NCBI GenBank assembly: GCA_016871995.1
Contig: VHBL01000002.1
Coordinates: forward strand, 120,001 to 152,000
Direction of reading: 5' to 3'
Length of the DNA stretch: 32,000 bases
Source of the DNA: Nitrososphaerota archaeon
GTDB lineage: Archaea > Thermoproteota > Nitrososphaeria > Nitrososphaerales > UBA57
In this document: in pieces, positions 13,754 through 32,000 of the stretch
How positions within the stretch are numbered: the first letter of the stretch is position 1
Layout: each line of letters starts with the position of its first letter
Notes under the pieces: model-generated
What the model was told of the DNA's origin: nothing
The model's database searches: none
The model's input: the letters and a program-made list of their open reading frames with translations, nothing else
Position numbers and translations under genes: made by a program

Positions 13754-14869
13754 ATGTCGTTTACAGATGAAGATCTAGAAAGATACTCGCGTCAAGTAGT
13801 GCTTGAGGACATAGGATTCGAGGGACAAGAAAAAATCAGGAATTCTACCATTACAGTAGTGGGTACTGGAGGGTTAGGAAGCCCTATTGCACTCCAACTC
13901 ACGGCGATGGGCATAGGAAAGCTCAGGCTCGTAGACAGGGATGTAATAGAGATTTCAAACCTGCACAGGCAAATACTCTTCAGCCCAGAAGATGTAGGGC
14001 TACCAAAAGCCGAAGTCGCAGTCAAGAAACTGCAGAAGCTGAACCCAGATGTAAAGTTCGAAACGCTGACATCATCACTCAATGACGACAGTGCAGAATA
14101 CATCATAAAGGGTTCAGACATAGTGATCGACGGTTTGGATTCTATCTATGCTAGATATGCATTGAATAGGGCATGCTTGAAGCTTAACATTCCATATATA
14201 TTCGGTTCTGCGATAGAAACTACAGGCTCAGCATCAACCTTTATTCCCAAAAATACTCCCTGCTTAGAGTGCCTGTACCCGAATTTGAGGGATGAGGACC
14301 TGCCAAAGTGCGGCACCGAAGGTGTGCATCCATCAGTACTTACTGTAGTTTCAAGTGTCCAAGTATCCGAAGCTATAAAATTGATAGTTGGGAAAGAACC
14401 GAGCCTTGCGGGGAACCTGTTCTACGCTGACATAAGAGATCTAAGCTTCGACAAAATCAAGATCGCAAGGCAGCCTGACTGCAAAGCCTGCGGCAATAAA
14501 GCCAACATTTCAGAACAGGTACTTCCTCGTAAACTGGTCGAAGAAATCTGTGGCAGAGAGCGCGGCAAGTCTGTCCATGTCATAACCCCTAAAGAGGATT
14601 TGCAATTGGATATTGCTAAGGTAGCGAGGGACCTGAACATACGAAACCTCAGGATACGGGCAATTGGAAATCATGGAATTACGTTCTCTTACGATCCAGA
14701 AATTAATGTAAGTTTGGTAAAGAGCGGCGTCGCTACGGTAGTAGGTGCGAATACGGAGCAGAGAGCGCTAGAAGTCTTCGATGACTTGGTGGTATCTGGC
14801 TTGAAAACCCCGCTGAACAAGGTAGACCCTAAATTTAATGTGGTTCTTGCGTCGTTAGCACACAATTAA
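13754..14869 (+). CDS. E1-like adenylyltransferase (ThiF/MoeB/UbaA family) with an unassigned C-terminal domain
   Basis: The N-terminus is RYSRQ. The nucleotide loop is VVGTGGLGSP, followed by DRD motifs. Zn-site CxxC pairs are present (CLEC ... CKAC), with a crossover-loop Cys (PKCGTEGV). After CKACGN there are about 120 further residues that are not rhodanese-like. It starts 3 nt after the carrier's stop. Confidence 0.85.
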   Translation: MSFTDEDLERYSRQVVLEDIGFEGQEKIRNSTITVVGTGGLGSPIALQLTAMGIGKLRLVDRDVIEISNLHRQILFSPEDVGLPKAEVAVKKLQKLNPDVKFETLTSSLNDDSAEYIIKGSDIVIDGLDSIYARYALNRACLKLNIPYIFGSAIETTGSASTFIPKNTPCLECLYPNLRDEDLPKCGTEGVHPSVLTVVSSVQVSEAIKLIVGKEPSLAGNLFYADIRDLSFDKIKIARQPDCKACGNKANISEQVLPRKLVEEICGRERGKSVHVITPKEDLQLDIAKVARDLNIRNLRIRAIGNHGITFSYDPEINVSLVKSGVATVVGANTEQRALEVFDDLVVSGLKTPLNKVDPKFNVVLASLAHN

Positions 14870-14973
14870 GACGTAAAACCCCAAACTATTCTGTAGTGTT
14901 AAATGGCTCTTGCAGACAGATTAGTCCGTTCCTTGGCTTTTCAAGTCGATGTCGGAGTTGCCAATTTGCCAAG

Positions 14974-15025
14974 CTAACCAGTTATAACTCTCATGATCTC
15001 TAACCAGTTATAACTCTCATGATCT
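14974..15025. repeat. perfect 26-bp tandem duplication (2 x CTAACCAGTTATAACTCTCATGATCT)
   Basis: Nt 14974-14999 are identical to nt 15000-15025, head to tail, with no spacer. Confidence 0.95.
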
Positions 15026-15477
15026 AATTCTTTGCCTATCGCCTGCCTAATTTGAATCAAGTCTATCCATCGCATCTCGAATCCCGAGGTAGGGACTACC
15101 AAGACTGCTTTGCCTATTCCTGCCCGCAGTCTTTTTACGATTTGTTTGTTTCGACTCTTCCGTTTAACATGAGCTATCCTTTTCTTTAACTCTTCTATGG
15201 CTAATGGATTAGGCTGGAGATCCCCGACCTCTCTTATGAAAGATTCAACTTCTTCGAGTGTTTGCTCTGTCGGGCCAGCTAGAACTTCATCATAGCTGCT
15301 CACAAAAAATTTGACATACTCTACCAAGTCTCTCTGATATTCCTCGAAGAACTTTTTGTCAGCTTGTGATAGAAGACCATAGAGGTACTTTTCAGAAAGA
15401 TCGACCATTACATTTTGCAATTTATTAAACAAACGAAGGGGGAATGAGGGTCTTCTCTCCCTCGACGTTTCTGCCAA
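14974..15477 (-). CDS. hypothetical protein (no recognisable family); 3' end altered by the 26-bp duplication
   Basis: It is the only long ORF in about 700 nt. The product is hydrophilic and helical in composition. The start is uncertain: TTG 15477 or ATG 15408. The current stop lies in the second copy of the duplication. Confidence 0.4.
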   Translation of the reverse strand: MAETSRERRPSFPLRLFNKLQNVMVDLSEKYLYGLLSQADKKFFEEYQRDLVEYVKFFVSSYDEVLAGPTEQTLEEVESFIREVGDLQPNPLAIEELKKRIAHVKRKSRNKQIVKRLRAGIGKAVLVVPTSGFEMRWIDLIQIRQAIGKELDHESYNWLEIMRVITG

Positions 15478-15561
15478 ACCGATGATAGATTTGATTCCCT
15501 GTCTAGGGGCGCTCCGCTAATATTCGACAACTGACGAATTTTTTCCAATCTATCTAACTAG

Positions 15562-15569
15562 TTTATATA
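15562..15569 (+). promoter_or_regulatory. consensus TATA box (TTTATATA) for the PQQ-type gene
   Basis: It is centred about 26 nt upstream of ATG 15591. Confidence 0.45.
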
Positions 15570-15590
15570 GAAAGAAAAAAGCTCGCGCTC

Positions 15591-17944
15591 ATGATACGAC
15601 AGATAACTCTGTTAAGTCTGATTGTGGCAACGATCCTACTAACTTCAACGTTAATGGCAGCACTAATCCCTCGTGTGAACGCTTTTGATCCTGGCGGTCC
15701 TCCAGTTGGAGGAGCAGCTCCAACAGTTGCTACCGGCAACTGGGAATGGATAAACTACCAGCCTACTGGAGGTAGTTATAGTCCTCAAACCCAGATAAAC
15801 AAAGATAATGTACAATATCTAGAAACGAAGTGGGTATATCCGTATACCGCGCCTCCAACGCCGTCAAAGTTAGGACTTTGATTCCCCAGCAAGGCTCAGG
15901 TGCTCCAGTTATTATCGTAGATGGAAATGTATATGTGCTCATGAACGACCATAGGATCCTTGCGATCGATGCCGGTACTGGCAAGCTCATATGGAACAAC
16001 ACCTATGGTACGACTTTTGATGCTGTCGGCGAAGCTGCAAAATACCCATTCTTACAGCCTCCCCTTCTGCATGGTCATGCTCTTAACTACTATAGAGATA
16101 AGGGTTGGCTCATTGGGAGCTCATTAGGCTCTTGCAACCTCTACGCGGTAGATGCTAAAACGGGCATAACATCATGGGTCCTAAGGACAGAGCAGATTTG
16201 TGGTACTGTTGCGGAATTAGGCGATCCCACAAAACTGGTTGGAAAAATTCCTGACTTTCCTGGTGCAGGCGCTCAACAGCCTTCTGGTTTTCCCGAACCT
16301 GGAAGTCTAGGGAATCAAGGATTTTACAGCAGCCTTGGTACTCATCCTCCAGTGTTCCTGGGCAACATAATGTTCTTTCCCGTGGCTGGTGCGAGTGGCC
16401 AAGGAGGTAGATCATTCGTTACAGCCTTCGACATGACCGATCCTCAGAATCCAAAGCGATTATACAGGACATTTACGCAGGGTCCAGCTCAAGGAGATCC
16501 TAACTGGGCGATAAACCAATGTAAAGCAGTAGGAGGAAATGGCTGGTACTTTGAATATCCAAAATTCCTCGAAAGCATTAACTATCCAGCAAGAGACAGG
16601 GACCCAACATATCTAGCAACAAAATGTACAGATGTAGCTGATGATGTCGTAAAGAACGACGGAATAGACATGGTTCCAGGTTCTCCCACCTTTGGAAGAA
16701 TGCATACATCCAGCCAAGCAGGTTCAGCGGTATGGGGTAACTATCCACTCGATCAAGAAACTGGCATTGTCGCGTTAGGTTGGGGTGACCAAGGACCGTA
16801 CACGAACTTGACAAACAAACATGGCCCAGGTCTTCATGGAAGTGGTTATACAGCACATGACGTCAGAACGGGAAAAATGGTCTGGTGGTTCCAAGCTGTT
16901 TTACGCGATCTATGGGACTATGACTGCTCGTGGGGCGGGATAATTGGGCAGGTTCAAGGAAAGAAGGCATACATCAAAGGTTGCAAGGATGGTATTGTTC
17001 ATGCATTAGACTGGTCGACAGGTAAGCCATTCTGGAATTATGACGCTCCCAGCATCCTTAGAGGAGGGAACAACATCAAGACGTACTATGGTGTTGGAGC
17101 AAACAACAGGCCAACTGATCCAGAAGCATGCTGCAAATTGACAAAGGCAGACATGGGCAAGCCATGGATGACTTACCCGCTCAAAGACCCGTTTGTACAG
17201 AACTGCTACACCGTTTGTCTGGAATCCGACTTCGCTTATGACGGTAAGCGGATTTATGTCGCAACGTTCAACAATATGGGCACTCATCGCGTGACTAATG
17301 TCATAACCTTCGGTAACTCGGGAGCAGCGGTTCCAAGAGCAAACTTCCCAGACCAGACTTTCACTGTAGATTCAAACATTGATGCCGTAGATGTGAATAC
17401 GGGCAAGAGGGTTTGGTCATATAAGATCGATACGTTTGGTTTCAGGGGAGGTGTTATGACTACTGGAGGAATGGTTGTAGTCTATGCCGCTGATGGAAAC
17501 CTGAAGTTCCTCGATGCAGAATCTGGCAAGCTGTTGCATGAAAAAACCTTCGGCGTTCCAGTTAGCGTCATGCCTACTATCGGGGCTGACAAGAATGGCA
17601 AGTACAAGATCTTCGCACACGTGGGTGGTAGTGGAGGCTTCCTTTTCAGTCAGGCTGCAACCACAGCAGGCAATCTAATGGCATTCGGTCTGCCTGACAA
17701 AATCCCACAGCCCCAAGTGATTACCAAGGAAGTCATCAAAGAAGTACCAAAGGAAGTCATAAAGGAAGTCATCAAGGAAGTAGTCAAAGAAGTACCAAAG
17801 GAAGTCATCAAGGAAGTAGTCAAAGAAGTACCAAAGGAAGTAACAGTAGAAACTATCAGTCCTATTTCGTATGCAGCGATAGGAATCGGTGTAGTAATGA
17901 TAGTCATATCAGGAGTACTGTTCAGTAGAAGGAAGAAGGCATAG
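15591..17944 (+). pseudogene. PQQ-dependent-dehydrogenase-family 8-bladed beta-propeller protein, secreted with a C-terminal anchor; frame broken near 15840-15885
   Basis: ORF 15591..15881 carries the signal peptide and the family N-terminus (W.W.NY....G.YSP..QINKDNV..L...W). ORF 15830..17944, shifted by -1, continues with GAPVIIVDGNVYV...AIDAGTGKLIW and later PQQ-type repeats (VDVNTGKRVW, LDAESGKLLH). Together they make one gene split by a frameshift. Confidence 0.8.
17726..17842 (+). repeat. 12-nt tandem repeat (about 9.75 units) encoding (KEVx)n
   Basis: The encoded peptide is KEVIKEVPKEVIKEVIKEVVKEVPKEVIKEVVKEVPKEV. It includes a 36-nt higher-order unit present twice. It lies just before the C-terminal TM helix and RRKK of the PQQ-type protein. 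Confidence 0.9.
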
Positions 17945-17966
17945 TACTAGATCGTCAGATTAGGAG

Positions 17967-18032
17967 GGGGTAGGTGTATGGTTCCATGGGAGATCCATGG
18001 ACGCTAGCCGAGTCATGAAACACACCTGCCCC
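17967..18032 (+). other. 66-nt structured element of unknown function, 23 nt downstream of the PQQ-type gene
   Basis: The lower stem pairs 17967-17977 (GGGGTAGGTGT) with 18022-18032 (ACACCTGCCCC), giving 11 bp with one G.U. The internal loop is asymmetric (5 nt / 20 nt). The upper stem TCCATGG/CCATGGA (17983-17989 / 17995-18001) has a GAGAT loop. Confidence 0.35.
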
Positions 18033-18439
18033 ATGCCAATCTTGATTAAGTTTCCTTCAAAACTGATAATCCTTTAGTTAATGGAAATCCCGAACAACCT
18101 GCTAGGCAGATTTAATTAATTAGTAATGGTAGAACAATCAAACAATCTTAAAGTTAACAGCGTAAACGTCAATCATTGACATAGCAGATGTTGACGAGAT
18201 TCACGAATAGATAAAGAACCTACCGACTTCCGCAGGGGTATTTGATAAAATTGACCAATAATAGATCAAGATTACGGTCAATTCTTAATCATTCTATCAT
18301 CCTGATAACGCTGTTTGACTGGTTGTGCTGTCAAAAGATGGTGGCGCTAGCTGACAAAGGCATATTTCGGCATGATATCCCTAGCCAAACAAAGAGGAAA
18401 TTGTTTAACTATTCTCCAATACCTTCCTAGAAACTTAAC

Positions 18440-18447
18440 TTTAATAG
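18440..18447 (+). promoter_or_regulatory. TATA-like box (TTTAATAG) for the zinc-finger gene
   Basis: It is centred about 26 nt upstream of ATG 18470. Confidence 0.35.
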
Positions 18448-18469
18448 CCTGAAGGAACTATATCAAATC

Positions 18470-19093
18470 ATGCAATCCTCTTTAGTTTTGAAGGGAGCAG
18501 AAGAGCTAATCAAAGAGCAGCTAGGATCTGAAGCTAACCCTGAAGCAAAGGTTAAGGTCTATGCCTCTTATTTAGCAGATAGATGCACTCAGTTATCAGG
18601 GGAAACATGGACTTCTAAGAACTGCACAAACTCTTTGCGATCTTACGGGCTTTGGGATAGCGAACAGTTTCCAACGTTGCAGGGTAGATATGGTTTCTAT
18701 GTTTTAGTCTCTTTGAATGACCTAAAGCAATTGGACTTATGGGATTGCTATGTATGCAATGGTAAAGTCAAAAGGGGCTCGGCTCGGGAGCATATCTTTG
18801 AATGCTGGATAGAAGGGGTTTCCTGCTTTAATTGTAATACGGTTGTTAAGTCCTATGAAGAGCTAGTTGAACATAGAAAAAATTGTCAGGTTTCTTTTAT
18901 ACCCTATAACTATGGTAATTGCCCTGCCTGCAATGCGAAAATAAAACTATCAGAAATGAGAAGGCATGTCAATCAATGTGAAGATATTCTATCATGGGAA
19001 GAGCCTGAGCAACCTAGCACAAAGGAAACAGAAACCCCTAGCATAATCGAAGTTGAAAAGCAAAGCACCGTAGAAGAGTTAGCTAAGGTATAA
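18470..19093 (+). CDS. protein with three CCHC zinc fingers (C-x2-C-x11-12-H-x3-C)
   Basis: The three fingers are CYVCNGKVKRGSAREHIFEC, CFNCNTVVKSYEELVEHRKNC and CPACNAKIKLSEMRRHVNQC. The tail is acidic and Ser/Thr-rich. The gene converges on the integrase gene with a 2-nt gap. Confidence 0.6.
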   Translation: MQSSLVLKGAEELIKEQLGSEANPEAKVKVYASYLADRCTQLSGETWTSKNCTNSLRSYGLWDSEQFPTLQGRYGFYVLVSLNDLKQLDLWDCYVCNGKVKRGSAREHIFECWIEGVSCFNCNTVVKSYEELVEHRKNCQVSFIPYNYGNCPACNAKIKLSEMRRHVNQCEDILSWEEPEQPSTKETETPSIIEVEKQSTVEELAKV

Positions 19094-19095
19094 AG

Positions 19096-20373
19096 TCAGG
19101 AAGGCAGTTTTACAATAGCTTTCCCGTTGGGAAGCTCTCTAACATAGTCCCAACCTTCGTTGATGTATTTTTCAATCTCTGAAGTACGGATAACCTTTTG
19201 ACTTGATCCGTTCTTTGTCAGCTTTGCTAATACCTTATGCTCTGCCTCTTTGGACTTCCTTTCAATCCCCTTTGTGAGTAATTCGTTATATTCGTCAGCA
19301 TGTAGCGAACTAACATCAATATTCAATAGCTCCTCTTCCGTATATCCTGCAGATCGAAGGCTTGTCTTTATGAAGGCCTGAATAAACGCATTACTGTCTT
19401 TAGTGTTAATCTCCCTTATCGCTAGTTTGGGAAGAGCAATTTTGTAAGAGTCCCTTAGCTGATCTTCCGTTGGCCTGCTATATGCACCGGCAGAGCTTCC
19501 CCTAGGTACATGCCCTAAGAGATAGTCAACCCAATTTAACGGGATCCCTGAGCCTTCTAGGATAGTTTGAGCTCTCTTCCTTAGTATATGGGCATGAAAT
19601 TCCTTCAACCCTTTAGCTTTAGCATTTAACCCTACCTTGAAACCCAATTTAGCGATCCTTGTCATTGTGGTAGTTGGAGCTAGAGTCTTTCCGTTCTTTG
19701 TGATAAATAGAAACGAATCGTTCGCAATCTTCTCCCCTAAACTCTGCCTCTGCTTGAAATAGTCCCTGATCGAATTAACAGTATCTTTGCCAATGAAAGC
19801 AACATAAGGGATATTCCCCTTTGTGATCCTTGCAGGAAACCTAACCATGCAGGGAATGTTATTAGCTTCATAATCGGCTCTGATATGTCCATACTTGAGC
19901 TGCAGAACTGAGCCTATCCTAGCACCTGACTCTATCAGGAAATACAGAAGGGGCCTTAATGCCTCTTTAGCAATGGTGCATAGTTTGAAGAGCTCTTCAT
20001 TGGTTGGGATCTTTTCAATCTCCCTCTTAGGAGGCTCTCTTTGGATTGAAACCTCCAGGGGTAAATGGTTCGCTTTATAGAAACTCTTAACCCAAGCTGC
20101 TAAACTATCCCCTCCCTTTGTGTTATTGGCAAAGGCTTTCAGGTTATCTTCTGCTTTGAACCTGACTTTGACATTCTTTGATAAGACTTCCCTGCTCCTC
20201 TCTTCTATGAGCTGATCGGGATTTTTGCCTAAAGCCTTCTCATATCTATACAATCCATACAGAGAGTTCCGAACCGTGTTTCTTGAATTATTGCCTAATT
20301 CGTTGAGCCATGTTTGGACTGGAGCATATTTCCTTAGTCTATCGTACTCAGCCTTCAGGTTGACTTGCCCCAT
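19096..20373 (-). CDS. tyrosine recombinase / phage-type integrase
   Basis: The catalytic signature is R (ESGARIGSVLQL), H-x-x-R (HAHILRKRAQT), H (LLGH) and Y (SAGAYSRP). The N-terminal SAM-like domain is present. The product is 425 aa with a C-terminal extension. Confidence 0.85.
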   Translation of the reverse strand: MGQVNLKAEYDRLRKYAPVQTWLNELGNNSRNTVRNSLYGLYRYEKALGKNPDQLIEERSREVLSKNVKVRFKAEDNLKAFANNTKGGDSLAAWVKSFYKANHLPLEVSIQREPPKREIEKIPTNEELFKLCTIAKEALRPLLYFLIESGARIGSVLQLKYGHIRADYEANNIPCMVRFPARITKGNIPYVAFIGKDTVNSIRDYFKQRQSLGEKIANDSFLFITKNGKTLAPTTTMTRIAKLGFKVGLNAKAKGLKEFHAHILRKRAQTILEGSGIPLNWVDYLLGHVPRGSSAGAYSRPTEDQLRDSYKIALPKLAIREINTKDSNAFIQAFIKTSLRSAGYTEEELLNIDVSSLHADEYNELLTKGIERKSKEAEHKVLAKLTKNGSSQKVIRTSEIEKYINEGWDYVRELPNGKAIVKLPS

Positions 20374-20395
20374 ACCTTAGGGTAGGTTTTGACAG

Positions 20396-20403
20396 TATAT
20401 AAA
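20396..20403 (-). promoter_or_regulatory. consensus TATA box (TTTATATA on the minus strand) for the integrase gene
   Basis: It is centred about 26 nt upstream of ATG 20373. Confidence 0.45.
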
Positions 20404-20430
20404 GGAAGATATTTCATTAGCATAAATTAA

Positions 20431-22651
20431 CTATTCAGTATCAATGAACTCGCTCGCCTGAGGAGGCTCAGGTGAAAGGCCCTTCCTCTTCCTGATGTCG
20501 GTTATGAGCGTTGGCAGTATTGATGCTGGAACCTGAGACCAAGCCTTGAAGTGCGTGTTCCATAGAGCCTTGCCTGCTGTCGCACCTCTCATTATTTCGG
20601 AAAGGTCGAATGTTTCTGATGCCGGAACCTCTCCTTCTACAATGGTCACGATTTCCTTCTGCTCAACGTTCAGCATCTTCCCTCTTTTAGATGAGATCAC
20701 ACTTGCTATTGCACCAATCTGCTCGGAGGGACATTTGACTTCTATGCCAAGCATCGGCTCGAGGAGGGTAGGCTGTGCAGAGAGCATACATCCAAGAATG
20801 GCCCTCCTTGAAGCTGGCATTAGCTGGGCGTATGTTCTGTGAGCAGGGTCTTCGTGGGGAACATAATGATGCAGAATTACTTTGACACCTCTGCAGTATT
20901 CGCGCGACAGTGGCCCTTCTTCCATAACATCCTCAAAGCCAGATCTTATGGAGTCCATTGATTCCTGCAGGTACTGTACACCTTTTGTGGCATCTAAGAG
21001 CATGTTTCCTTTGTTGTCTATTGTAACGACGCTCTTTGCTTCGTCTGAATCCCATCCCAAATCTCTTAGTGTCTTTGCAAGCTGCTTTTTGTCTATGTTT
21101 TCGTTGATCTGACCAGTTCTGATTAGTTCGACGATGTTGTCTGGCAATGCTTCTACGCGCATCAGTATCTTGTTATGTCTATTTGGAGACTTTGACATTA
21201 TTGGTCCAGCCTTTCCTTTTATTGCCTCCCTGTAGTTGATCAATGGCCGTGAAGTCATGATCTCTAGACCTGCTTGCTGTATAAGCGTGGTAGCTATTTC
21301 CAAATGTAGAACTCCCATGCCCGCGAGGAGCATTTCTCCAGATTCTTCATCAATCTTTACGACAAGGTTAGGGTCTTCGATGCTAAGCTTTCGTAATTCT
21401 TCAACGAGCTTTGGAAGCTCCTTCGGATGCTTCGACTCTATAGCTATTGTAACTACTGGCTCTGAAACGTACTTTATGGCTTCGAAGGAATATACATCTT
21501 TGATCGTGGAGATGGTCTCCCCTGATCTTGCATATTCTAATCCGAGTAGTGCGGGGATATTCCCTGCCGACATCGTGCCAATAATTTCCCTAAAAGGCCC
21601 CATGTACATGTTTACTGACTGGATTCTTCCCTCCCTCTTTGCCCCGAGCAAATAGACTGAATCACCATCATGCACGGTCCCCGAGTATAACCGCCCTGTA
21701 GCCACAACACCTGCCTGAGGGTCAACGACTACGTTGGTAACCATCATGACTATGGGCCCGTTTTCGTCGCACGCAAGAAGGGCCTTGCCGACTTCGCTGT
21801 TTAAATCACCCTTCCAGATTTTTGGAATTCTATAAGCCTGTGCAACATGTGGGGGAGGATGGTGTTTGACGACCATGCCGAGAACTGCTTCGTGTAGGGG
21901 AGCTTTTTCTGACAGTTCCTTTACTCCATCTTCAGTGTAAGCCTTGTAGATGTCTGCAAATTTGACACCCTTCTTACTTGCTATGTCAAAGTTGAAGCCC
22001 CAGCGGTCTTTTGCCGAGCCAAATGAAACGGTACTAGTTTGAATGCTTACCTTCCATTTTTCCTTGTACTCTGGCTCTGCATAAGCATCGATAAGAGCAT
22101 TGAAATCGCTGACAATATTTGCCAACCAAGCCTGCATCTTGTCCGGGGTAAGTCTGAGTTCCTTTACCAGGCGATCGATCTTGTTGATATAGAGGACAGG
22201 CCGCACCCTCTCCTCAAGTGCCTGCCTCGTTACTGTCTCTGTTTGCGTCATCACGCCTTCTACCGCATCAGAAACTACGACAGCGCCATCAATGGCCCTA
22301 AGACTTCTGGTCACCCTCCCTGTAAAATCTATGTGCCCGGGGGTATCGATCATATTGATGACGTATGGTTTTCCCTCTTGTTCGTAGTATAGAGTAACGT
22401 TAGCAGCTTTTATCGTCATTTGACGTTGCTGTTCAAGTGGCATAAAGTCTAGAGCAAGGGCTTGACCAGCGACAGAGGGGCTGAGCATACCGCAAGCAGC
22501 CAAGAGGCTGTCGCTCATCGTAGTCTATTCGGCTGAGAGAGAATCTCGCTCAGTTTCCGTGATCTACGTGAGCTATGACCCCAAAGTTTCTGATCTGGTC
22601 TCTGTTCCCGATGACCTTCATTACTTCTGTCGTTGACTTGTACTTTGGCAA
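20431..22651 (-). CDS. fusA: translation elongation factor 2 (aEF-2), split by a 28-nt insert: exon 1 is 22651..22555 and exon 2 is 22526..20431
   Basis: Exon 2 corresponds to the track ORF, which starts inside the gene at MSDSLLAACG. It carries G3 (DTPGH) and G4 (NKID) and has the full EF-2 length. Exon 1 starts at TTG 22651 (TGA two codons upstream) and encodes MPKYKSTTEVMKVIGNRDQIRNFGVIAHVDHG. Joining the exons gives AHVDHGKTTMSDSLL and 97 + 2096 = 2193 nt, which is 730 aa plus the stop. Confidence 0.85.
22527..22554 (-). other. candidate bulge-helix-bulge (BHB) intron within the aEF-2 coding sequence
   Basis: The minus-strand RNA reads GUAGAUC-ACGG-AAA-[CUGAGCGAG AUU CUCUCUCAG]-CCGA-AUA-GACUAC. 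The outer helix is GUAG(A)UC/GACUAC. The central helix is ACGG/CCGA, with three G-C pairs and one A.A. The 3-nt bulges are AAA and AUA. An inner hairpin sits between them. Cutting after the second nucleotide of each bulge removes exactly these 28 nt and restores the frame. Confidence 0.55.
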
Positions 22652-22690: not shown

Positions 22691-22700
22691 TATATATCTT
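22691..22700 (-). promoter_or_regulatory. TATA-like box (AAGATATATA on the minus strand) for aEF-2
   Basis: It lies about 44 nt upstream of TTG 22651. That implies a leader of about 18 nt, which contains the SD-like CAGGTG 6 nt before the start. Confidence 0.35.
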
Positions 22701-29248: not shown

Positions 29249-29257
29249 AGATCAGCC

Positions 29258-32000
29258 TTGCCGATAAATTGGGATTCGATTCAGGACAAATGGAGAAGGC
29301 GATGGTCAGACGCTAAGATTTTCGAAGCAAATCCAGATCCTGCTAAGAAAAAATTCTATATTACAGTTGCTTACCCATACCCAAATTCTCCTCAGCATAT
29401 AGGGCATGGAAGGACGTACACTCTAACAGATGTCTACGCCAGATACAAGAGGATGCAGGGCTTCAACGTGCTGCTGCCTATGGCATTTCATTACACGGGG
29501 ACGCCAATACTTGCGATGTCGAGGAGGATATCAGAAGGAGACCCAGAACTTATAGATACGTTCAGAGAGATTTATGGAGTTTCTGATGATGACATAAAGA
29601 AGCTCGGAGAGCCTATCAACATAGCAAGGTACTTCCATCAAGAAATCAAGAACGGGATGATCGAGATAGGATATTCGATGGACTGGCGGAGAGAATTTAC
29701 CACTATTGACCCACAATACAGCAAATTTATCGAGTGGCAGTTCCACAAACTTGCAGAGAAAGGGTACATTACAAGAGGGAGCCATCCTGTAGGCTGGTGC
29801 CCGAAAGACGGAAATCCCGTTGGCCAGCACGACACTGTTGGCGATGTGGAACCTGAAATCGGGGAGTACACCCTTGTAAAGTTCGACCTTGATGGCTATA
29901 TCATACCCACTGCGACATTAAGACCAGAGACTGTCTTTGGAATCACAAATGTATGGATCAACCCAGATGCGAAATACGTTAAGGCAAAACTAGGTAATGA
30001 AAAATGGGTTATTGGTATGGATGCGATACCCAATCTCGAAATTCTTGGTAGCAAGATCACAATAGAGTCGGAGCATACAGGCAGTGAGTTCATCGGCAAA
30101 TATCTTGTAAACAGGTTTACAGGCGTGAAAACTGTTATTCTGCCTGCAAAGTTCGTCGACCCGAAGAACGGGACAGGGATCGTGATGTCAGTCCCCGCTC
30201 ATGCCCCATACGACTTTCAAGCGCTAGAAGACCTGAAAAAGGATTACAAGTTCCAAGACATGCTCAAGAGCATAAACTCTATCGTGATAATCTCTTCCGA
30301 GAAGTATTCTGGTATACCTGCAGCGGAAATAATCAAGGAGATGGGCATTCAGAGACAAGACGATTCTAAACTGGAGGAAGCTACCCAGCAGCTATACACT
30401 TATGAATTCAGCCTTGGCAAGATGCTCCCGAATACCAGAGAATATGCAGGCCTAGGCGTGCGGGAAACAAGGGATAAGGTCAAAGCGGAGATGCTGAAGA
30501 CTGGCAAGGGAACGACTCTCTACACCATAATGAACAGGCCTGTAATCTGCAGGTGCGGAACTGAATGCAAGGTCAAGATTTTCGAGAATCAATGGTTCAT
30601 CAACTACGGCGATTCGAAGTGGAAGGAAACTGCAAGAGAATGTCTTGCTTCAATGGCCTTCCTGCCAGAAGACATAAGGCCCGAATTTCAGTACACTGTG
30701 GGATGGTTAAGAGAGAAGGCTTGTGCAAGGAAGTCTGGGATGGGTACTAAACTTCCATTCGATAAGGAATGGATCATAGAAAGTCTTTCAGACTCGGTAA
30801 TCTACATGGCCTATTACACAATAGCAAGACTCCTGAACCGAAACAAGATAGCTGCAGAACAATTGACAGACGAATTCTTCGACTATGTTTTTCTTGGCCA
30901 GGGTGATGCTGGAAAAGTTTCAGGAACGACAAAAATAGAAAGAAATGTTATAGAAGAAACTAGGAAAGAGTTTCTGTACTTCTATCCTCTTGACAGCAGG
31001 CACTCTGGCAGGGATTTGGTGCCTAATCATCTGACCTTCTTCATCTTCAACCATTGCGCAATATTTCCTAGGGAGCTTTGGCCCAAGCAGATAGTCGTCA
31101 ACGGGTCAATGCTGATGGAGGGGAAGAAGATGTCGAAATCCTTTGGGAATATCATCCCGTTAAGGCAGGCAATAAGATCGTATGGAGCGGACCCTCTAAG
31201 AGTTTCGATAATGGCTACTGCTGAATTGCTGCAGGACGCGGATTTTGGCAGAGACCTTATCAGAACCTTTACAGAAAGATTGAACAGGTTCTATTCTGTT
31301 ACACAGGAGGTTTCGCAGGCGTCAGATATTGAAAAATCGAAACTCTCTGTTGCAGACAAGTGGCTGCTGAGCAGAATCCAGAGGACGATAGCGCTCGCGA
31401 CGGAAGCCATGGAGAAGCTAAGGGTCAGAGAAGCTCTACACCATATAGTCTACATACTGGATCAGGATATTGCATGGTACCTTAAGAGAACTGCCAGCCC
31501 AGAAAGCGTGAAGGATTCTGTGCTGAAGTACGTCGTTCAGGCGAGGGTTAGGATGCTCGCACCGTTTGTGCCATATATCTGCGAAGAAGTATGGGAAATG
31601 CTGGGCAACAGGGATTTCATTGCTACATCTCCGTGGCCTAAAGTTGATGATACGCTATCAGATACGGTTGCTGAAGAAGCTGAAAGTCTGGTCAAGAATG
31701 TCTTGGATGACGTGCAGAACATACTGAAAGTTACCAAGATGAGTCCGAAGAAAGCGATCCTCTATACGAGCTCGAAATGGAAGTGGCAGGCTTATCTGAC
31801 AGCGATTGAGTTAGGAGAGAAAGGAGAATTAAATGTTGGAGCTTTGATCAAAACTCTGCTGAAGGACGAATCGCTGAAGAAAAAGGCGAAAGAAGTATCA
31901 GGGTTCTCCCAGATCCTGGTTGAAGAAGTTTCTATAATGGCTGCTGGCATGAAGAGCAGAAGGAAGGAACTGGGCTCTTTAGATGAAAAACCAGTCCTCC
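29258..32000 (+). CDS. leuS: leucyl-tRNA synthetase, N-terminal about 914 aa (3' end lies outside the window)
   Basis: The ORF track omits it because it has no stop inside the window. The frame is open from the alaS stop (29246-29248) to the window edge. The N-terminus is (TTG)PINWDSIQDKWRRRWSDAKIFEA...KKFYITVAYPYPNSPQHIGHGRTY, with HIGH at 29396-29407. KMSKS (GKKMSKSFGN) lies at 31127-31141. Confidence 0.9.
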   Translation, partial: MPINWDSIQDKWRRRWSDAKIFEANPDPAKKKFYITVAYPYPNSPQHIGHGRTYTLTDVYARYKRMQGFNVLLPMAFHYTGTPILAMSRRISEGDPELIDTFREIYGVSDDDIKKLGEPINIARYFHQEIKNGMIEIGYSMDWRREFTTIDPQYSKFIEWQFHKLAEKGYITRGSHPVGWCPKDGNPVGQHDTVGDVEPEIGEYTLVKFDLDGYIIPTATLRPETVFGITNVWINPDAKYVKAKLGNEKWVIGMDAIPNLEILGSKITIESEHTGSEFIGKYLVNRFTGVKTVILPAKFVDPKNGTGIVMSVPAHAPYDFQALEDLKKDYKFQDMLKSINSIVIISSEKYSGIPAAEIIKEMGIQRQDDSKLEEATQQLYTYEFSLGKMLPNTREYAGLGVRETRDKVKAEMLKTGKGTTLYTIMNRPVICRCGTECKVKIFENQWFINYGDSKWKETARECLASMAFLPEDIRPEFQYTVGWLREKACARKSGMGTKLPFDKEWIIESLSDSVIYMAYYTIARLLNRNKIAAEQLTDEFFDYVFLGQGDAGKVSGTTKIERNVIEETRKEFLYFYPLDSRHSGRDLVPNHLTFFIFNHCAIFPRELWPKQIVVNGSMLMEGKKMSKSFGNIIPLRQAIRSYGADPLRVSIMATAELLQDADFGRDLIRTFTERLNRFYSVTQEVSQASDIEKSKLSVADKWLLSRIQRTIALATEAMEKLRVREALHHIVYILDQDIAWYLKRTASPESVKDSVLKYVVQARVRMLAPFVPYICEEVWEMLGNRDFIATSPWPKVDDTLSDTVAEEAESLVKNVLDDVQNILKVTKMSPKKAILYTSSKWKWQAYLTAIELGEKGELNVGALIKTLLKDESLKKKAKEVSGFSQILVEEVSIMAAGMKSRRKELGSLDEKPVL

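Follow-up and report, generated by a model that had tools for sequence, protein, structure and literature searches.

A candidate bulge-helix-bulge mini-intron in the P-loop lysine codon of an archaeal elongation factor 2 gene, with counterparts at neighbouring positions in related archaea

The DNA analyzed here, referred to as the window, is a stretch of 32,000 nucleotides from contig VHBL01000002.1 of a Nitrososphaerota archaeon (assembly GCA_016871995.1), and the subject of this study is the gene for the archaeal elongation factor 2 (aEF-2, gene ef-2) on its minus strand, which is split over two reading frames. The main open reading frame (ORF), 22518..20431, starts at ATG 22518 with MSDSLLAACG..., comprises 695 aa and lacks the P-loop (G1 motif). 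Upstream of it, in another frame, lies a short ORF of 33 codons (22651..22550), which starts with a TTG codon, encodes MPKYKSTTEVMKVIGNRDQIRNFGVIAHVDHGN and ends at a stop codon. A sequence-only reading of this stretch had assigned both ORFs to a single gene interrupted by a short insert, and all coordinates and sequences that it gave for them are correct.

Removal of ACTGAGCGAGATTCTCTCTCAGCCGAAT (22554..22527, 28 nt) joins 22555 to 22526 and leaves ...CAC GGA AAG ACT ACG ATG AGC..., translated as AHVDHGKTTMSD, which recreates AHVDHGKTT at the head of a 730-aa aEF-2; the claim that this deletion restores the P-loop lysine could thus be reproduced. Deletion of 22553..22526 gives an identical product. 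Exon 1 (22555..22651, minus strand) consists of 32 codons from the TTG start (MPKYK...AHVDHG) and of A 22555, the first base of the lysine codon, while exon 2 (20431..22526, minus strand) contributes the AG completing this codon and continues with TTMSDSLL... to the stop codon. Between them, the insert ACUGAGCGAGAUUCUCUCUCAGCCGAAU (22527..22554, minus strand) interrupts the codon of the invariant P-loop lysine, 97 nt from the start codon, at a position where relatives carry homologous inserts of 28-31 nt. Compared with the NCBIfam equivalog model of aEF-2, TIGR00490, the spliced 730-aa protein aligns over profile positions 8-720 with 856.6 bits, above the curated cut-off of 738.45 bits and over the full length including the G1 motif. 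The 695-aa ORF alone reaches 816.6 bits over positions 35-720, and positions 8-34 are filled by the protein of exon 1. Since a stop codon follows two codons past the 5' splice site, unspliced RNA is limited to the 33-residue peptide.

The interrupted region folds into a bulge-helix-bulge (BHB) structure. The fold drawn in the sequence-only reading is the minimum-free-energy (MFE) fold of a 71-nt region (-25.1 kcal/mol, z = -3.35; 0 of 200 shuffles were as stable), and RNAalifold arrived independently at the same structure on 10 homologous sequences. All elements lie on the minus strand. The outer helix h pairs exon with exon, its 5' strand GCUCACGUAG(A)UC (22561..22573) facing the 3' strand GACUACG(A)UGAGC (22513..22525), which contains the exon 2 codons K-T-T-M-S. 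Its existence had been recognized, its extent had not: it spans 22573-22561 / 22525-22513 instead of 22567-22561 / 22525-22520 and comprises 12 bp with two single-nucleotide bulges. The central helix H, in which ACGG of exon 1 (22557..22560) pairs with CCGA of the insert (22529..22532), is built from three G-C pairs (CGG/CCG) and an A.A juxtaposition; its 3' strand is invariant among relatives but for ACGA in locus L172. The 5' bulge AAA (22554..22556) and the 3' bulge AUA (22526..22528) are unpaired in both the MFE and the consensus fold, with predicted cuts at 22555/22554 and 22527/22526, respectively. The inner hairpin h', CUGAG-C-GAG/AUU/CUC-U-CUCAG (22533..22553), includes the in-frame UGA (22552-22550) and is found, like the outer helix, by MFE folding and by RNAalifold.

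The bulge topology was compared by hand with the geometry of tRNA introns at position 37/38. As there, two 3-nt bulges lie on opposite strands, each 3' of a central-helix strand, and the flanking helices, a 12-bp outer helix and an 8-bp inner hairpin, exceed the minimum of 2 bp. The strict hBHBh' form with a central helix of exactly 4 bp is found in none of the copies at this insertion position, which therefore belong to the relaxed form. In archaeal tRNA introns at 37/38, the splicing endonuclease EndA cuts after the second nucleotide of each bulge. Applied to the present fold, cuts after bulge nucleotide 2 (AA^A and AU^A, where ^ here and below marks a cut or junction) coincide exactly with the junction demanded by homology, and joining the ends in silico yields AHVDHGKTT and the full aEF-2, just as the sequence-only reading had deduced from this rule.

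How often such a coincidence is to be expected was estimated by scanning the window for BHB motifs. A strict scan revealed 26 motifs versus approximately 20 in shuffled sequence, a loose scan approximately 1400 in both. Of the BHB motifs in the window, the EF-2 site alone unites two real reading frames on removal (33 + 698 codons). With two of approximately 3 million combinations of position and length being acceptable, the 26 motifs give an expectation of approximately 2e-5 for BHB cuts that fall by chance on a protein-restoring junction.

Alignment of relatives for presence of the insert and for covariation of its helices speaks in favour of an RNA-level element. An insert directly after AHVDHG, a position that we call site C, occurs in 12 further contigs (L001, L161-L170, L172), which derive from different samples and assemblers and were drawn from Logan, ENA, JGI and NCBI assemblies. 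An assembly or sequencing artefact in the window contig, for which no more than the general possibility of such errors in metagenome assemblies can be adduced, is hardly credible at all when the same insertion site, with diverged intron sequences, recurs in these 12 contigs. The site-C inserts measure 28, 29, 30 or 31 nt and therefore cannot be coding. Their flanks are invariant (CACGTAGATCACGGAA^A...CCGAA[TC]^AGACTACGATGAG), and the diverged hairpin sequences keep their pairing (CTGAGCAAG/CTTGCTTAG, CTAATCCGAG/CTCGGTTAG, CTAGGCGAG/CTCGCTTAG). Among 10 distinct sequences, standard pairs occupy 97.5% of the pair cells, compared with 24-42% when the partners are slid, and compensatory changes affect three inner-helix pairs. 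The covariation score was reached by 0 of 500 shuffles, which, as the sequences are related, is supportive and not a formal probability.

A stop codon follows exactly two codons past the 5' splice site in every site-C intron, in the form of UGA, UAG or UAA. Its two variable bases covary with their helix partners and never yield UGG, and the 30-nt variants, which would preserve the frame, hold one or two stop codons. Selection may have kept these stops in order to end translation of RNA that is still unspliced. With a stop codon and a stable hairpin directly after GGA, the site also bears a superficial likeness to the take-off site of T4 gene 60, and one could imagine translational recoding, i.e., a ribosomal bypass or frameshift over the 28 nt. 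We regard this as highly improbable, because the lysine codon AAG is present nowhere in the DNA and arises only when A 22555 is joined to AG 22526-22525, and because no GGA landing codon matches the take-off. A separate hop would have to be postulated for each insert length found in close relatives (28, 29, 30 and 31 nt), and the in-frame variants carry their stop codons all the same; matching take-off and landing codons across a fixed gap, the hallmark of programmed bypass, are thus missing.

At the protein level, a collection of 5.8 billion sequences was consulted. The closest proteins (P0001-P0013, 87-100% identity) comprise 685-695 aa and start at or after MSDSLL, and full-length 730-aa homologues appear only at identities of at most 80%. 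With the spliced N-terminus as query, neither an intronless allele nor a fragment of the spliced form was found for the window clade among the 5.8 billion proteins; near-identical matches cover exon 2 only. The absence of intronless alleles is consistent with a fixed intron and says nothing on the RNA.

Substitution patterns were analyzed for both exons. Exon 2 reveals dN of 0.03-0.08 versus dS of 0.8 to more than 3, and in exon 1 dN (0.05-0.2) is likewise lower than dS (0.2-1.3), its protein being conserved with synonymous variation in 9 relatives. These patterns indicate that both exons are translated and under purifying selection. A second constraint concerns the RNA. Where the amino acid is invariant among 10 genes, synonymous variation affects 434 of 466 degenerate codons gene-wide, compared with one of 10 in the helix-forming stretch A26 to S36 (outer and central helix; Fisher p = 1e-10), and this lone change, AGC/AGT, is G.U-compatible and keeps the pair. 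All 12 outer-helix positions are paired in every intron-bearing gene, which holds for 0 of 159 intronless homologues (loci L002-L160, codons AHVDHGKTTMS). These homologues already form 5-11 of the 12 pairs, which suggests that a pre-existing exon helix favoured acquisition of the intron and may represent a proto-splice site.

These data also bear on the idea that the locus is a decaying pseudogene or a non-functional paralogue, with an intact EF-2 elsewhere in the genome. The ORF is formally broken, the window is only a part of the genome, and one relative, L001, shows an additional deletion of 126 nt. Nevertheless, such decay is very unlikely in view of a dN/dS of approximately 0.03 in exon 2 and below 1 in exon 1 across relatives with saturated dS. 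Moreover, the position of the break is identical throughout a clade spanning 78-100% protein identity, the exon flanks are under extra RNA-level constraint, and the protein database holds no intact EF-2 of at least 87% identity.

We consider it highly probable that the window aEF-2 gene carries a 28-nt archaeal BHB intron within its P-loop lysine codon, which is spliced by EndA and the ligase RtcB. Folding and junction were derived in silico and by comparison, whereas cleavage, ligation and circularization are modelled on the enzymology of archaeal tRNA and cbf5 splicing. In the pre-mRNA, exon 1 (22573-22561) would pair with exon 2 (22525-22513) and present the central helix and the bulges above the hairpin. 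EndA would then cleave each bulge past nucleotide 2, an RtcB-type ligase would join the exons and thereby create the AAG codon, and the intron would be freed, probably as a 28-nt circle. Translation from TTG 22651 is predicted to yield the normal 730-aa aEF-2. The expected signatures are a spliced junction (CACGGAA^AGACUACG, CACGGAA^AGACTACGATGAG) and a circular-intron junction (...CAGCCGAAT^ACTGAGCG...). Thaumarchaeota have an alpha2-beta2 EndA (PMC4090602), and heteromeric EndA tolerates relaxed BHB motifs (PMC7714728), a property of relevance for site C with its central helix of only three Watson-Crick pairs. The further notion of the sequence-only reading that translation capacity would depend on the splicing machinery presupposes a single EF-2 copy in the genome, of which the window represents 32 kb only.

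Several points weigh against splicing by EndA and RtcB. The central helix at site C falls short of the strict 4 bp by its A.A juxtaposition and is even weaker in L172 (ACGG/ACGA, only 2 pairs). BHB-like folds arise approximately 20 times per window by chance, and therefore the structure by itself is no evidence. Neither EndA nor RtcB is encoded among the ORFs of the 32-kb window, and splicing of the EF-2 mRNA is predicted here from DNA sequence. Finally, the 126-nt in-frame deletion in L001 directly 3' of the intron is unexplained. This locus (L001:440-480, JACPBJ010000148.1, a GTDB species representative) has the same intron as L169, and the segment lost behind it, TTMSDSLL...QMTIKAA, comprises the rest of G1 and switch I; the loss is in frame after the predicted splicing. 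The missing peptide was found nowhere else on the L001 locus. The deletion could be real or a low-coverage assembly error.

The non-canonical central helix, with its weaker version in L172, and the absence of EndA and RtcB genes from the window would also fit removal of the 28 nt at the RNA level by some other nuclease and ligase, the resemblance to a BHB motif being partly coincidental. We judge this quite unlikely, as three independent families of EF-2 introns, two of which are described below, all have 3-nt bulges in which the cut between nucleotides 2 and 3 gives the correct junction, and as the two other families possess perfect 4-bp central helices. To our knowledge, there is no other archaeal system for the precise excision of hairpins of 28-39 nt.

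Two other classes of intervening elements were rejected for the window insert. A self-splicing group I or group II intron requires a ribozyme core of hundreds of nucleotides, compared with the 28 nt found, and the insert has no Rfam match; an intein is incompatible with a length that is not a multiple of 3 and with the stop codons. ARAGORN and Rfam searches revealed no known RNA family in the window.

Moving from site C to other EF-2 genes, we found two further insertion positions, and the BHB scan confirmed the junctions that had been worked out for them by hand. At site A, ten codons upstream of site C, an insert of 30-31 nt interrupts the Asn codon of QIR^NFG (CGA A^AU) in other Nitrososphaeria (L002, L004, L008, L081, L083, L085-L088, L091, and L092), with a distance of approximately 95-130 nt to the downstream MSDSLL codons of each locus. 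Its central helix UUCG/CGAA is a perfect 4-bp helix, its bulges are AAA and UGA or UAA, and the genes concerned have been called as truncated or aberrant proteins of 695, 714 or 726 aa. One nucleotide away from site A lies site B (AGG AA^U), whose insert of 28-29 nt in L082, L084, and L171 has 4 canonical pairs in its central helix (CAGG/CCUG). Site-B and site-C introns have a common exon context and common intron ends (AGAUCA(C)GGAA^ACUG...CAGCC). A 39-nt BHB insert at site A is present in a Bathyarchaeia metagenome-assembled genome (MAG; L173:2455-2500, GCA_038859405.1, JAWCES010000017.1), with the central helix UCCG/CGGA, bulges AAA and AUA, and an inner stem of 13 bp; EF-2 mini-introns thus reach beyond the Nitrososphaeria. 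Several other Bathyarchaeia EF-2 calls start with MGIIAHVDHG. At sites A and B and in L173, a cut after bulge nucleotide 2 restores QIRN[FI]G[VI]IAHVDHGKTT every time, and in all EF-2 introns seen the 5' splice site is followed, one to three codons on, by an in-frame stop. A neighbour-joining EF-2 tree, to be read as an indication only, joins the site-B lineages to the site-C clade as its sister group and shows site A in two places with intronless lineages interleaved. A scan of the relatives' EF-2 loci (374 kb, both strands) revealed no second convincing intron in other genes; all rescues outside EF-2 join out-of-frame sequence.

The same codons host another kind of intervening element. Three EF-2 proteins of 1256-1277 aa from Conexivisphaerales and related MAGs (P0021, P0054, and P0062) contain inteins at HVDHGK^C, recognized by their Pfam intein and LAGLIDADG domains. 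Their insertion site lies 2 nt downstream of the site-C position, i.e., the P-loop codons attract two kinds of intervening elements. The EF-2 of Candidatus Nitrosocaldus (P0120, P0202, and P0237) starts with MAHVDHGKTT or MSDSLL and is approximately 25-35 N-terminal residues short, which suggests a related interruption in this lineage, for which enrichment cultures exist. Calls with the MAHVDHGKTT start include those of Ca. N. cavascurensis and Ca. N. islandicus.

A tentative and on balance doubtful reading of these distributions is that the first 100 nt of ef-2 form a hotspot at which BHB mini-introns have been gained, have slid and have moved across TACK archaea. Consistent with it, site A is common to Bathyarchaeia and several Nitrososphaeria, and site B is shifted from it by 1 nt. 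Site C, found 30 nt further downstream in the clade that is sister to the site-B lineages, has a near-identical exon context and similar intron ends, and its position is 2 nt from the EF-2 intein homing site. Mobility of the mini-introns could come from reverse splicing or from recombination at exon helices that were already in place. Other options are that they are what is left of larger elements, that they block homing-endonuclease elements, or that, by analogy with XBP1/HAC1, they provide a splicing-dependent checkpoint on EF-2 synthesis.

Upstream of the window gene, a TATA-like A+T-rich box AAGATATATA (22691..22700, minus strand), read directly from the bases approximately 40-50 nt 5' of the TTG, is a possible archaeal promoter. 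The genes upstream of ef-2 in the window are SRP54 and Pus10, unlike the neighbourhood of the cbf5-bearing relatives. On the 3' side, ef-2 is directly followed by thiF-thiS in relatives, whereas a tyrosine-integrase gene stands directly 3' of ef-2 in the window and in L161. The window contains approximately 5.5 kb (14900-20430) between thiF (13754-14869) and the ef-2 stop that are missing in most relatives and encode the tyrosine integrase (19096-20373), a C2HC zinc-finger protein, a PQQ beta-propeller protein and a hypothetical ORF. This stretch is probably an integrated element that used the 3' end of ef-2, a known integration target of thaumarchaeal casposons (PMC6563490); an att-like duplication of the ef-2 3' end of at least 14 nt was not found around the integrase element. 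In another relative (L011:5190-6024, OY969807.1), the last approximately 34 ef-2 codons (SVPTNMLLPLV...AEFIDKE, with the stop codon) are repeated approximately 830 nt downstream, with a small cassette for an AbrB/SpoVT-like protein in between; the duplication marks a past integration at the 3' end of ef-2.

Within the inserted stretch, the PQQ beta-propeller gene (15591-17944, plus strand) is split into ORFs of 96 and 704 aa by a frameshift near 15830-15881. A second intron was considered here and rejected, since no BHB motif accompanies the break, a plain frameshift; the gene has likely been hit by a sequencing error or is a pseudogene within the inserted element. Directly before the C-terminal membrane anchor of its product lies a KEVIKEVPKEV-type repeat, encoded by a repeat with a 12-nt period in 9 overlapping copies (17713-17856, plus strand). 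The 3' end of a 167-aa ORF close to the left border of the inserted stretch holds a 26-nt unit in two perfect tandem copies (CTAACCAGTTATAACTCTCATGATCT twice, 14974-15025). The last part of the window (29250-32000) has no ORF of at least 100 aa, only overlapping minus-strand ORFs of 99 and 77 aa (29531-29871), and no Rfam or tRNA match; an ORF may run off the window end after 29250.

For genome annotation, the consequence of these introns is that EF-2 is mis-called in many public MAGs of Nitrososphaeria and Bathyarchaeia, as a truncated protein of 685-727 aa or as a "partial GTP-binding protein". EF-2 is a common phylogenetic marker. Three questions are made testable by the EF-2 case: the origin and movement of BHB introns in coding DNA, the relation of splicing to coupled transcription and translation when the intron lies only 97 nt from the start codon, and the dependence of EF-2 output on EndA and RtcB activity. 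Cultured Candidatus Nitrosocaldus, should it carry a related interruption, would permit direct experiments.

Among known systems, the closest is the intron in the pre-mRNA of cbf5, on which Watanabe (2002) and Yoshinari (2006) have reportedly worked. It occurs in the gene of the pseudouridine synthase aCBF5 in Desulfurococcales and Sulfolobales (Yokobori 2009, PMC2738675). Both cases concern a BHB-flanked intron with a relaxed motif in an archaeal coding sequence, in hosts with heteromeric (alpha-beta)2 EndA, and both share a patchy distribution with gain and loss and gene callers that report a split or truncated gene. EF-2, however, is a translational GTPase, and its introns occur in Nitrososphaerota and, at site A, in Bathyarchaeia. 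It has at least three insertion positions within 31 nt, compared with one in cbf5, and its site-C intron sits in the catalytic P-loop codon. Splicing of cbf5 has been shown experimentally, whereas the case for EF-2 is made here from genomic DNA. The cbf5 gene itself is intact (328-332 aa) in L161, L162, L164, L165, and L166, approximately 1.4 kb upstream of ef-2.

The second archaeal mRNA example is the 46-nt BHB intron located within the 5' untranslated region (UTR) of Haloferax volcanii HVO_1309, which is cut by EndA and released as circular RNA (PMC7714728; PMC10485636). It shares with the EF-2 inserts the small size and the location in an mRNA, but resides in an untranslated leader where no reading frame is interrupted. 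Its BHB is strict, and the EndA of its euryarchaeal host is of the alpha2 type. In 2020, cbf5 was named as the one further mRNA beside HVO_1309 (PMC7714728), and a review of 2023 counted two archaeal mRNA-intron genes and expected more (PMC10485636). The statement of the sequence-only reading that cbf5 is the sole established protein-gene BHB intron agrees with this literature, except that HVO_1309 with its 5'-UTR intron stands beside it. Its expectation that an EF-2 intron would be new held: we found no description of an EF-2 BHB intron in open-access papers and bioRxiv. If confirmed at the RNA level, EF-2 would be the third archaeal mRNA known to be spliced by the tRNA-type route. The list would then include a translation factor that is essential and conserved universally, from another phylum than before, with three alternative insertion sites and with comparative support of unusual strength.

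In eukaryotic XBP1/HAC1 mRNAs, IRE1 together with RtcB or Trl1 carries out an unconventional cytoplasmic splicing, and the XBP1 intron has 26 nt. The spliceosome-independent removal of a tiny, frame-changing intron and the joining by a tRNA ligase are common to both, and in XBP1/HAC1 this serves as an on/off switch for the functional protein. The differences are that IRE1 recognizes twin stem-loops instead of a BHB motif and that regulation, by stress, is known for XBP1/HAC1 splicing only. Archaeal BHB introns, in their hBHBh' and relaxed forms, were reportedly described by Marck and Grosjean in 2003. The introns of tRNAs and rRNAs (PMC3978253) follow the same succession of helix, 3-nt bulge, short central helix, 3-nt bulge and helix with cuts in the bulges, and the EF-2 intron overlaps in size with small tRNA introns. 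Its host RNA, however, is an mRNA, and the exon strands of the motif are coding; they thus constrain codon choice, hence the frozen synonymous sites. The kind of element is therefore already known from cbf5 and HVO_1309, and what EF-2 adds to it are the multiple insertion sites, the distribution across classes and the location in the catalytic motif of an essential gene.

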